From Gemmatimonadota bacterium (GTDB lineage Bacteria > Gemmatimonadota > Gemmatimonadetes > Palauibacterales > Palauibacteraceae), in contig OZ220691.1 in the NCBI GenBank assembly GCA_965116475.1, positions 2,688,001-2,752,000 of the forward strand: DNA of 64,000 nt, in the 5' to 3' direction. Of this stretch, positions 9,501-11,372 are shown one piece after another. The notes under the pieces are model-generated. The model was given only the letters and a program-made list of their open reading frames with translations. It searched no databases and had not been told where the DNA came from. The translations under genes were made by a program, and so were the position numbers. Within the stretch, counting starts at the first letter, position 1, and every line of letters starts with the position of its first letter.

Positions 9501-11372
9501 GACGACGCGTTGTGCACCGCGGACGGCAAGGCGCTGTCGCAGGCGGTCTCGGTGACGGTGGCCGGCCCGGCGGCCACTCCCGCCGTCAGCGTGGCGGATG
9601 CGAGTGCGACGGAGGGGTCTGCGGTCGCGTTCACGGTGTCGCTGTCGGAGGCGAGCAGCGACCAGGTGACGGTCGCGTACGCGACCTCGGGCGGCACGGC
9701 GACGAGCGGGACGGACTTCACGGCGGCATCGGGGACGCTGACGTTCGCGGCGAACGAGACGTCGAAGACGGTGAGCGTGGCGACGACCGACGACTCGTCC
9801 GACGAGGAGAACGAGACCTTCACGCTGACGCTGTCGAGCCCCACGAACGCCACGCTGGGAGACTCGACGGCGACGGGCACGATCGAAGACGACGACGCGA
9901 CGCCGCTCACGGCTTCGTTCTCGGACGTGCCGGCGAGCCATGACGGTTCGAGCGCGTTCACGTTCACGCTGTCGTTCAGCGAGAACGTCGCGGGGCTGAG
10001 CTTCAGGAAGTTGCGAGACTCCGCGTTCGACGTGACCGGCGGAAGCGTGAAGGCGGCGCGCCGGAAGACGGAAGGCAGCGACCAGCACTGGAACATCGAG
10101 GTCGAGCCGGACTCGGAGGCCGACGTCGTGATCCTGCTGCCGGAGACGACCGACTGCAGCGCGACGGGGGCCATCTGCACGTCGGACGGCCGAAAGCTGT
10201 CGCAGGCGGTCTCGGCGACGGTGGCGGGCCCGGACGTCACCGCGGCCCTCACGGCGCGCTTCGAGGACATGCCGGCCTCGCACACGGGCGCGGACTTCAC
10301 CTTCGGGCTGGTGCTCAGCGAAGACATCGGGGGACTCGGCTTCAGGACGTTGCGCGACGACGCGTTCGATGTCACGGGAGGCAGCGTGCGAAATGCCAGG
10401 CGCCAGGAGCAGGGAAGCAACCAGCGGTGGACGATCACGGTGCGGCCGTCCTCGGCGAGCGACACGGTGAACATCACGCTGCCGGAGACGACCGACTGCA
10501 ACGCGACCGGCGCGATCTGCACCGACGACGACCGGCCGCTGTCGCACTCGCTGTCGGCGACGGTCCTCGACGCGGCCTCGTCGAGTTCGGTCGCGGGTGA
10601 CGCGGCCGCCGGGCCCGTGGGAGACGGCGGCGTGGACGCCGCGCTGGCGCTCGCGGCCGGCCTCACGCCGGACGACGCGACGGCGGCGCTGTTCGGCGAG
10701 CGGAGCCTGACCGATGCGCAGGAGGCCGCGCTCGACCGCCTGGGCAACCGGAACGGGAGCTTCGACCTCGGGGACGTGCTCTCCTGGATCGAGCGCTGCC
10801 GGCGGGGCGAGGCGGACTGTGGCGGCGCGTCCGGAGATGCCGGGCCCCTGGGTGCCGCCGCCCTGCTCGCCGCCGCCCGCCGCCGGCGAACCTCCGGCCG
10901 CAGGGGAGGGCGCGCCCCCGGGCCTCGCGGACGTACCCGGGCGCGCCGCGCGCGCCGCCGGGCGGGGATCGCCAGATACGCAGTCGTGGTGCTCCTCGCC
11001 GCGGTCACGACATGGTCGTGCGCGGACGGCGTGGTGGGGCCAGTGGCGCCGGACGCCGCCGTGCCGGATCCGGGCTTCCTGACCGTGGAGCTGGCCGCGC
11101 CGGCCGCCCATCGCGTCAGCGGCGTTCTGCTCGAGATCGAGGGTCCCGGCATCGGAGTCGTCCAGGCTCGGGGCCTCGAGTTGTACGAGTCCGCAGCCTC
11201 AGGGCGGCATCAGGTCATCCTGGCGGGCACGCTCGAATCGGGTCCCCTGATGCAGTTCCGCGTGCCGGACCGCAACCGGCTCGCTCAGTACCGGGTCCGC
11301 GTGATCCAGGTCACGGGCGAGGACTACGGACTCATGGACGCGGGCCGGTACCGGGCGGTGCTCAGGCACTGA
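6549..11372 (+). CDS. Giant secreted Calx-beta/Ig mosaic adhesin 1 (1607 aa) with composite C-terminal tail
   Basis: Signal peptide (LPAEAQ); Calx-beta repeats (VAYATSGGTATSGTDFTAASGTLTF...DDS.DEENETFTLTLS); four Cys-loop domains; tail LDRLGNRNGSFDLGD...TWSC... Confidence 0.88.
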   Translation: MTKPMRRHHYTTGNENRIAGAAAGLLLACAGLLAAALPAEAQTTYISNTGQTYDPDFSYLVGPDHIGGQYSYAQQFTTGKEPGGYALGSVELYLRHVGRMDVPKVSIYTVTSDDPGRSVYVLTNTRAGEYVHNSLVTFTAPPRATLAPNTPYFVVVEAVDGAFGVGGTDALSEDAGSAGDWSLRGARHWRNTDAGNWFATTPPLRIAVKGLGPNTAATGQPSISGAPRVGTILVAGLGTIADVDGLPWTFPDDYTFQWVRVDGGTETDLSGETSHTYTLGTADLGKTIKVRVSFADAREKAEGPLESDATGPVTEAREIPGDEILDATLTVGRNGYGCGREGDNQCGAQMSQHAFSSTDALGVSRRFTITALGIDATQQQLWFQVSTQLSDYEKHNLVLVLGGWRFAFRTANSQASSSLFKFWNDAGLSWAAGQQVQVQIVDADNPPSTPRVPSVRVADAEAHEADGTIDFKVTVNRPLQGDRPLLHTVTVDYATSDGSAKAGEDYEQKYGTLTFPRDETEQTVSVRLIDDAVEDDGETFTLTLSDAKRATIADQYATGTIRNSEDPGLSVADASATEGSAVVFTVSLSRSNSEPVTVAYATSGGTATSGIDFTAASGTLTFAANEMSKTVSVETTDDSAGEEDETFTLTLSSPTNATLTDASATGTINNDDGEVVPLTAEFQNVPATHDGSTAFTLRVLFSEALAPGGSGRKLARGLALTGATAGTVRRVDERRDLYEFPVRPSGTTAVTVSLSATTDCAADDALCTAEGKALSQAVSATVAGQTVTPELSVADASAAEGSAVAFTVSLSEASSDSVTVAYATSGGTATSGTDFTAASGTLTFAANETSKTVSVVTTDDSDDEENETFTLTLSSPTNATLGDSTATGTINDDDGEVVPLTAEFQNVPAAHDGSTAFTLRVLFSEDLAPGGSGRKLARALALTGATAGTVRRVNERRDLYEFPLRPSGTTAVTVSLSATTDCAADDALCTADGKALSQAVSVTVAGPAATPAVSVADASATEGSAVAFTVSLSEASSDQVTVAYATSGGTATSGTDFTAASGTLTFAANETSKTVSVATTDDSSDEENETFTLTLSSPTNATLGDSTATGTIEDDDATPLTASFSDVPASHDGSSAFTFTLSFSENVAGLSFRKLRDSAFDVTGGSVKAARRKTEGSDQHWNIEVEPDSEADVVILLPETTDCSATGAICTSDGRKLSQAVSATVAGPDVTAALTARFEDMPASHTGADFTFGLVLSEDIGGLGFRTLRDDAFDVTGGSVRNARRQEQGSNQRWTITVRPSSASDTVNITLPETTDCNATGAICTDDDRPLSHSLSATVLDAASSSSVAGDAAAGPVGDGGVDAALALAAGLTPDDATAALFGERSLTDAQEAALDRLGNRNGSFDLGDVLSWIERCRRGEADCGGASGDAGPLGAAALLAAARRRRTSGRRGGRAPGPRGRTRARRARRRAGIARYAVVVLLAAVTTWSCADGVVGPVAPDAAVPDPGFLTVELAAPAAHRVSGVLLEIEGPGIGVVQARGLELYESAASGRHQVILAGTLESGPLMQFRVPDRNRLAQYRVRVIQVTGEDYGLMDAGRYRAVLRH

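Follow-up and report, generated by a model that had tools for sequence, protein, structure and literature searches.

A probable fusion of a cohesin-dockerin-like pair, with a putative internal lipoprotein signal, at the end of giant surface proteins in a marine Gemmatimonadota bacterium

The stretch analysed here, a 64,000-nucleotide window of a Gemmatimonadota genome (assembly GCA_965116475.1, contig OZ220691.1, positions 2,688,001 to 2,752,000), encodes three giant open reading frames (ORFs) on the + strand, which have no internal stop and share their last ~250 amino acids (aa). This C-terminal cassette raises the question of what a lipoprotein-like signal is doing deep inside an exported protein, with a folded module on either side of it. 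Our reading, to which we assign a probability of about 0.6, is that the two partners of a hitherto unrecognised, Gemmatimonadota-wide cohesin-dockerin-like pair have been naturally fused to form the cassette. The dockerin-like half (part 1) is followed by a short hydrophobic stretch (part 2), an Arg-rich loop (part 3), a hydrophobic h-region with a lipobox-like Cys (part 4) and the cohesin-like half (part 5).

The cassette and the folds of its two end modules

The window has a G + C content of 65–76% and is part of a closed 3.62-Mb genome (96% complete). The cassette stands at the end of giant ORF 1 (6549..11372, 1607 aa), giant ORF 2 (18052..25947, 2631 aa) and giant ORF 3 (29109..36119, 2336 aa counted from GTG; the ATG of ‘MAVVLLF...’ is the likelier start, and the stored protein P0051 is the same protein from that Met). 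All three are surface-protein-like, with N-terminal signal peptides and Calx-beta plus Ig-like repeats. Giant ORF 1 consists of a signal peptide, a choice-of-anchor R domain, four Calx-beta domains, repeated ~110-aa modules and the cassette; choice-of-anchor R (NF041539) was recognized in giant ORFs 1 and 2 (E 3e-22 and 8e-36). The shared tail of three giant secreted proteins, the starting point of an earlier note on this DNA, was borne out, with pairwise identities of 92–93% in protein and 93% in DNA (710/762, 720/774 and 722/774). The only close relative of the tail to carry a name was a ‘hypothetical protein [Candidatus Palauibacter sp.]’ of the Gemmatimonadota.

The five parts which that note had distinguished were all in place in copy 1, where we checked them. 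Part 1, a dockerin-like four-helix module (10632..10826, + strand), has one Ca-loop-like motif (LDRLGNRNGSFDLGD, 10731-10775) and is closed by a Cys pair (CRRGEADCGG, 10797-10826). Part 2 is a short hydrophobic stretch resembling a first transmembrane segment (GPLGAAALLAAA; TM1-like), followed by RRRR (10842..10877, +). The Arg-rich loop of part 3 (10878..10967, +) is read as the extended n-region of an internal signal peptide, whose h-region (IARYAVVVLLAAVTTWS) and lipobox Cys form part 4 (10968..11021, +; Cys codon 11019-11021). Part 5, a cohesin-like beta sandwich of 102 aa, lies at the extreme C-terminus (11064..11369, +). In copy 2 the dockerin-like module, the h-region with its Cys and the cohesin-like domain are found at 25198..25392, 25525..25578 (Cys codon 25576-25578) and 25630..25944, and in copy 3 at 35361..35555, 35697..35750 (Cys codon 35748-35750) and 35802..36116, all on the + strand. 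The Cys codons previously placed at 11019, 25576 and 35748 were confirmed exactly, and all three are TGC. They encode residues 1491, 2509 and 2214 of giant ORFs 1, 2 and 3, and are not N-terminal, unlike the Cys of canonical lipoprotein signals.

Part 1 was modelled alone by AlphaFold2 with high confidence (predicted local distance difference test, pLDDT, 95.7; predicted template modelling score, pTM, 0.82). In an exhaustive structural search against 48,161 PDB representatives, ranks 1–11 were all dockerins (Z 5.7 to 3.5, 47–59 residues aligned). The best match was 2ccl_B (Z 5.7, root mean square deviation, rmsd, 2.6 Å, 56 of 62 residues, 25% identity), and the top non-dockerin, at Z 3.3, was unrelated. 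With Foldseek, dockerins made up eight of the first nine rows (E 0.57–2.6). The most conserved columns of part 1 read L-D-x-x-G-N-x-N-G-x-[YF]-D-x-G-D-x-L; D35, G38, N39, D45 and D48 were invariant, and N41, G42 and G47 were conserved to at least 90%. This loop agrees with positions 3, 5, 6, 8, 9 and 12 of what we take to be the consensus of the EF-hand/dockerin Ca loop. Read directly, the sequence of the first helix-loop (AAGLTPDDA) showed no Ca-loop motif. The predicted structure of part 1 thus has the dockerin fold, in line with the dockerin likeness claimed for it from the sequence.

For part 5 we used an AlphaFold2 model of the whole 251-aa tail, built from 37 aligned sequences. It had pLDDT values >90 at residues 1–70 (four helices) and 145–251 (beta sandwich), and <50 at residues 71–131 (65 residues <50 in all). 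Searched against the same PDB representatives, part 5 retrieved cohesins at all of ranks 1–16 (Z 9.0–6.5, rmsd 2.2–3.4 Å, 89–101 residues aligned), led by 2w1n_A (Z 9.0, rmsd 2.3 Å, 92 residues aligned) and followed by 2vo8_A (Z 8.8), 6kgc_A (Z 8.4) and 2xdh_A (Z 8.3). The top non-cohesin, YcnI, came at rank 17 with Z 6.5. The modelled part 5 has the cohesin beta-sandwich fold, the very fold suspected earlier, in a compact form of 102 aa versus 135–160 aa in typical cohesins. When the whole tail was searched, a type I dockerin (2ccl_B) appeared at row 42, aligned to residues 8–65, and the top Foldseek row was the cohesin 2xdh (E 4.7e-3), in a list made up mostly of cohesins with none at E 1e-3. 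Each score by itself is moderate; the weight lies in parts 1 and 5 independently retrieving, one each, the partners of one known complex. The ESM Atlas gave low scores (0.76–0.78), with Dockerin_1 and Cohesin in 23–88% of the members of the nearest named clusters; this was not counted as evidence.

The single-chain model of the tail reached a pTM of 0.67, although one quarter of its residues were disordered. By our own arithmetic, a 107-residue domain alone in 251 aa would give ~0.44 at most, and two domains fixed relative to each other ~0.68. The observed value, compared with the ceiling of ~0.44 for one domain, indicates that parts 1 and 5 are confidently placed relative to each other, and the model suggests that they are packed on each other.

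Split and fused arrangements across the phylum

As a single query, part 5 gave matches in 120 of the 401 genomes sampled from the phylum, a sample which includes two unpublished genomes (G057 and G182). In two bacterial families, f1 (the window's own) and f6, part 5 closes huge open frames, and in a third family of the phylum, f3, it is found in frames of only 130–270 aa. We examined 15 of these small-frame loci and then 20 more, for two of which the adjacency was foreknown from the coordinates. A part-1 end was present on the ORF directly upstream, on the same strand, in 27 of the 35 (9/15 and 18/20). The part-5 frame of such a split locus starts from a Met of its own, followed by a basic n-region, the h-region and a lipobox of canonical type (e.g. 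MRRLVVVTVLLASC, MKSLRAVALAGLAVALAGC and MKRLALVLVLALVLAC), with LAAC, LASC, LAGC, MIAC and similar motifs. The upstream proteins were M6 (InhA-like) metallopeptidases in all four cases tested. One of the nine positives of the first set (L048) had a linker of the fused type and is probably a fusion disrupted by a frameshift.

The eight exceptions were five ‘MTYTFKLxRR’ lipoproteins, two extra copies beside a fused gene and one locus cut by a contig end. The first of these groups represents a second arrangement, seen in genus g27 (L040, L050, L051, L056 and L068), in which cohesin-like ‘MTYTFKLxRR’ lipoproteins have no adjacent dockerin-bearing gene. Their genes precede, by 6–10 kb and on the same strand, the gene for a ~1,500–2,000-aa protein with a dockerin-like end.

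The cassette is not a chance feature: parts 1 and 5 are kept in one open frame at 25 of the 29 loci from other genomes, and three of the four exceptions are contig-end cuts. Both the fusions and the adjacent separate genes that the earlier note had proposed to look for were therefore found. The two parts also occur together across genomes. Among the 401 genomes, part 5 was detected with a profile in 183, and part 1 was detected in 186; as a descriptive count, 170 genomes had both, 13 part 5 alone, 16 part 1 alone and 202 neither, that is, 170 with both versus 29 with one. A hidden Markov model (HMM) found an adjacent part 1 in two of the 13 ‘part 5 only’ genomes (L069 and L074). Within the window's genus, 7 of 18 genomes had both parts, the same seven for each.

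Beyond these genomes, the part-5 profile matched the representatives of 1,273 clusters built at 50% identity (E up to 1e-3), 752 of them also under the stricter limit of 1e-10, and none of these clusters was covered by Pfam or NCBIfam. Of the 150 matches listed, nearly all had part 5 at the C-terminus or close to it, in proteins of 93 to 5,211 residues.

The linker and its possible processing

What lies between the two modules was investigated in 181 stored proteins with part 5, of which 148 were fusions of part 1 and part 5, giving 145 distinct linkers. A strict test, requiring a small residue and a Cys after an uncharged hydrophobic run, was passed by 142 of the 145; the other three had NWSC or TWGC. 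The h-region was 9–19 aa long (median 15), the 45 aa preceding it had a median of 13 Arg and Lys versus one Asp and Glu, and the distance from the Cys to the start of part 5 (median 15 aa) matched that of the split lipoproteins. Because the N-terminal lipoprotein signals of the split relatives correspond to this segment, parts 3 and 4 can be understood as the n-, h- and c-regions of an old lipoprotein signal peptide. The internal lipobox-like signal, which had been noticed from the letters alone, has by this comparison true N-terminal counterparts. Some fused members (L032, L033, L034 and L035; P0125 and P0177) have a ~200-aa Big_2-like insert between the lipobox Cys and part 5, and such a spacer fits a tethered mature lipoprotein with a lipid-anchored N-terminus. 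The enzymes of the pathway, Lgt (PF01790, 176.7 bits) and LspA (PF01252, 139.1 bits), were above cut-off with one copy each in the genome.

The fused lipobox is of the form xW[SGA]C (AWSC 35, TWSC 23, AWGC 18 and LWSC 15 times) and not of the canonical L-[AS] type at positions -3/-2. A Trp at -2 was found in none of the split f3 lipoproteins that were read. A Tat-type reading of the Arg-rich n-region was set aside; by eye, the twin-Arg consensus is not conserved among homologues. The hydrophobic stretch of part 2 was present in 106 of the 142 fused linkers, with a median uncharged run of 16 aa, at least 17 aa in 42 of 108. Like the Cys pair of part 1, this stretch occurs in the fused forms only and not in the split ones. 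The split relatives end, judged by eye, in a short ‘xRLLxx...K/R’ tail, and part 2 may be only a relic of that ‘xRLLxx’ tail. In one protein (P0029) the first hydrophobic stretch is merged with the h-region (‘...PVSSTALLAATTWSC...’) and the Arg-rich loop is missing; recombination between these two runs, which resemble each other, could explain this, as could an assembly artefact.

We propose the following path, which takes up the two-product idea of the earlier note, an idea supported in part by the results above. In the ancestral, split state a secreted protein would have ended in a ~65-aa dockerin-like module, and the next gene would have encoded a small lipoprotein with a ~100-aa cohesin-like mature part, which would have kept the secreted protein attached to the membrane through non-covalent docking. 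Loss of the stop codon between the two genes in the window's lineage would cause the adhesin to continue through the Arg-rich stretch, the old signal peptide and the cohesin-like domain. The N-terminal signal would still export the adhesin, the Arg-rich loop would remain in the cytoplasm, and the internal signal would restart export of the C-terminal domain. Lgt and LspA would then lipidate the Cys and cut at W-S|C, and the freed lipoprotein would stay bound to the dockerin-like end of the adhesin as a 1:1 tether.

This path starts from the anatomy of the cassette, the two folds, the split and fused relation and the co-occurrence described above; from there we infer the binding, the cleavage by signal peptidase II (SPase II), the lipidation of the Cys, the surface location and the route of the linker across the membrane. 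Taken as a whole, a lipoprotein-borne cohesin-like tether whose genes were fused and whose internal signal is cut at W-S|C is probable, and we are more confident of the pairing of parts 1 and 5 than of the cleavage. The most specific version, a self-anchoring polyprotein with an internal signal >1,400 residues in, a W-S|C cut and a Ca-dependent mini cohesin-dockerin pair joining the two products, is tentative, with odds slightly below even.

Several observations weigh against our reading. Concerning the folds, the matches are moderate (Foldseek E >1e-3, Z at most 9.0, and Z 7–8 is called common by the search tool). Classical dockerins have two Ca-binding loops, and part 1 has one recognisable loop. 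Searched against Pfam at E up to 10, the tail gave neither Dockerin_1 (PF00404) nor Cohesin (PF00963), and among 177,635 PDB sequences a part-1 profile (24 sequences, E up to 10) retrieved no dockerin and a part-5 profile (30 sequences) no cohesin; both profile searches returned chance rows only, at E 0.035 or worse. The docking is deduced from a pTM value, that of a single one-chain model whose alignment was drawn from fused proteins. The co-occurrence counts overstate independence, because the genomes counted are kin. With respect to the signal, a Trp stands at -2 in most of the 142 linkers, whereas among 282 N-terminal lipobox candidates from the window's genome just one has it there. Finally, 36 of the 142 fused linkers have no hydrophobic stretch at all before the Arg loop, and the proteins concerned have N-terminal signal peptides wherever their N-terminus is complete (judged by eye). 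Because they lack a stop-transfer helix yet carry N-terminal signals, a simple two-helix hairpin is not general.

Some of these points would also suit an uncleaved anchor, in which the hydrophobic stretches would stay in the inner membrane and the dockerin- and cohesin-like modules would form an intramolecular clasp in the periplasm, with no lipoprotein freed. The atypical lipobox with Trp at -2 agrees with this, as do the 106 of 142 linkers in which two hydrophobic stretches surround a strongly basic loop, like a helical hairpin, and the AlphaFold2 model, which packs both modules inside one chain. A plain anchor, however, does not need the small residue and Cys that are kept in essentially all 145 linkers, nor a segment corresponding to the cleaved lipoprotein signals of the split relatives. 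A stable membrane helix would be expected to be longer than these h-regions (9–19 aa, median 15), the first helix is missing in 36 of 142 linkers, and an inner-membrane tether would be odd for 1600–2600-aa adhesins of a diderm cell. We regard the uncleaved anchor as unlikely, and prefer the lipoprotein-borne tether.

Part 2 had also been described as resembling the C-terminal sorting signals of the MYXO-CTERM or GlyGly-CTERM kind, and if it were a true signal of this sort, an unidentified enzyme would cut there and the downstream region would be a separate matter. The resemblance itself stands: a Cys-Gly motif comes first, then a hydrophobic run and then an Arg cluster, and the Cys pair and the stretch are specific to the fused forms. 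Part 2 goes no further than this resemblance. The tail matched no family of NCBIfam at E up to 1, hence no sorting-domain model. When the tail and its last 136 aa were compared with Pfam and NCBIfam, the result was a single chance row (NF005862, 13.6 bits versus a cut-off of 414), so the tail matches no sorting domain described in these databases. Part 2 is not at the extreme C-terminus, as ~165 residues come after the Arg cluster. Exosortase (PF09721) had no match in the genome (96% complete), for which no search for a myxosortase-type enzyme was made, and rhombosortase (TIGR03902) stayed at 43 and 29 bits, under its cut-off of 84, a result that all 14 control genomes shared. The neighbouring genes were searched for sorting enzymes and partners, and seven unassigned ORFs gave no family. 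With the stretch missing in 36 of 142 fused homologues, and a similar ‘xRLLxx’ tail in the split relatives that would make it perhaps a relic, a sorting signal in part 2 is improbable.

That neighbouring genes were merely read as one, through rare stops at 70–75% G + C or an assembly error, or that an internal start is used, is largely refuted: random G + C-rich DNA would by our own estimate leave about one third of 80-codon stretches open, and a Met is found near the n-region in 38 of the 142 linkers, but an upstream gene would need an in-frame stop and none exists, at 25 of 29 loci in other genomes the parts share one frame, across linkers of 56 to 261 aa, versus ~11% expected by chance (own estimate), the fusion is present in five cassette copies within this closed genome, and 104 of the 142 linkers have no Met there. 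For the window copies an internal translation start was ruled out, as no in-frame ATG, GTG or TTG precedes the h-region. In copy 1, as had been stated for stops and ATG, the frame is free of both before part 4; it has no ATG, GTG or TTG at 10827-10985, and the first in-frame start codon of the linker is a GTG inside the hydrophobic stretch.

Known systems, further copies and neighbouring genes

Cohesin-dockerin pairing is the textbook device by which cellulosomes are assembled in Gram-positive anaerobes. The closest comparison is the type I pair of Clostridium thermocellum (1ohz, 2ccl), where a ~65-aa helical EF-hand-like module also ends secreted proteins, its beta-sandwich partner is borne by an anchoring protein, and the role is to tether secreted proteins to the cell, as we presume for the cassette; the best structural matches of both parts are of this kind. 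The cassette differs in having no sequence match by Pfam or PDB profile, a single Ca-loop motif (x-N-x-N-G-x-[FY]-D-x-G-D) and a sandwich of ~100 aa versus ~140. The anchor would here be a putative lipoprotein in a diderm phylum, not a surface-layer homology (SLH) domain or sortase, and the cargo consists of M6 peptidases and Calx-beta adhesins, not glycoside hydrolases.

The linker resembles lipoprotein precursors handled by Sec, Lgt and LspA in its basic n-region, 9–19-aa h-region, small residue at -1 and Cys at +1, and differs from them in its position ~1,450–2,500 residues from the N-terminus and in the Trp at -2. In MYXO-CTERM, GlyGly-CTERM/rhombosortase and PEP-CTERM/exosortase signals a Cys/Gly motif is followed by a hydrophobic run, and this by an Arg cluster. 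Part 2 has the same motif order, but it is internal, matches no model, has no cognate enzyme that we found and is not present in all fused homologues. A polyprotein split at an internal signal peptide is known from FbcH of Bradyrhizobium, the cytochrome b-c1 precursor. There, as proposed for the cassette, one ORF gives two membrane or periplasmic products; unlike in our proposal, the enzyme is signal peptidase I and not II, the product is a respiratory complex, and docking modules are absent.

A dockerin and a cohesin in one polypeptide have been described for Amy4 of Ruminococcus bromii, whose dockerin recognises its own cohesin (PMC4611034). Both systems carry the two modules in one gene product, mutual binding being a prediction only for the cassette; Amy4 is described without a membrane segment or lipobox between the modules and without a proposed cut, and its self-recognition leads to intermolecular aggregation (PMC4611034). 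Outside cellulosomes, cohesin and dockerin modules also occur in proteins that serve adhesion, in syntrophic sulfate reducers and ANME (anaerobic methanotrophic) archaea (PMC10553843). These are likewise adhesion proteins of environmental diderm bacteria, but they are recognised by standard domain models, and the available part of the source describes no lipoprotein anchor or internal signal for them (PMC10553843).

In the literature, supplements excluded, we found nothing on this family, on a lipoprotein-borne cohesin of Gemmatimonadota or on a lipoprotein signal within a dockerin-cohesin fusion. Partly judged by title, the papers retrieved included none on an internal lipobox or internal SPase II signal, and no relevant one on dockerins or cohesins of Gemmatimonadota. 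The Palauibacterales paper had no mention of adhesins, Calx, dockerin, cohesin, lipoprotein or secretion. That such pairs of cohesin and dockerin exist beyond cellulosomes is already established, and internal SPase II processing, if shown, would be new in kind. Our proposal, if true, would give the first natural case of such processing and, for a diderm phylum, the first cohesin system with a lipoprotein anchor; the system would cover well over a thousand protein clusters without a family name. The same two folds, with no detectable sequence likeness, would then serve as a phylum-wide lipoprotein tether for secreted proteases and giant adhesins, a probable means by which these sponge- and seawater-associated bacteria hold their largest surface proteins on the cell. 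It also raises the question of whether the lipoprotein pathway can act on a signal peptide deep within an exported protein, and by which route the intervening chain would pass or leave the membrane. For surface display, a docking pair that is small, orthogonal and equipped with a lipid anchor could be useful.

Three further copies of the cassette, absent from the earlier note, are present in the genome. Two are diverged full cassettes (59–69% identity) outside the window, which end open frames of 3062 aa and 967 aa. The third is truncated and belongs to a 945-aa protein with leucine-rich repeats (LRR) and Calx-beta domains (26086..28923, + strand). It has part 1 only (28714-28908), the tail being ‘...CRRGEVDCGGPSAI*’ with the stop 5 aa past CGG. 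This protein is either an orphan dockerin, possibly docking in trans, or carries a cassette truncated via rearrangement. On the 3' side of its gene ~150 bp are strikingly AT-rich (the genome has 70% G + C), after which giant gene 3 follows.

The repeated ~110-aa module is found between the Calx-beta domains and the cassette (about 8400-10560) and in the other three proteins. It has a conserved Cys pair and the pattern ‘PLTA.F..VPA.HDG...F.F...FSE ... TTDC.A.GAICT.DGR.LS’, is shared by homologues in other genomes, and matched no Pfam family besides a weak DUF6916 row. The N-terminal signals of giant proteins 1 and 2 (6549-6680 and 18052-18230) hold ‘LLLAC/LFLAC-AGLL’, a possible lipobox in the middle of the hydrophobic run, which precedes an AEA|Q-type cleavage site.

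Divergent from and upstream of giant gene 1 there is a hybrid GAF-PAS histidine kinase with a receiver and an OmpR-type DNA-binding domain (4023-6410, - strand). Right after giant gene 1, at 11385-16547, we annotated a 649-aa Wzy_C (O-antigen-ligase-like) membrane protein, a GT2 glycosyltransferase and a MurJ-type flippase, which are possibly a glycan or protein-glycosylation unit beside the adhesins, and on the opposite strand a sulfotransferase-domain gene (16548-17828). Giant gene 3 is directly followed by a lipoprotein gene (36166-38286; signal ...LVWAAGC) with four Big_2 domains and a ~300-aa C-terminal region without a family, carrying a HEIMH (HExxH, zincin-like) motif. The adhesin gene block ends with a DDE transposase fragment (38338-39075; PF13701, residues 49–143 of the 435-position model).

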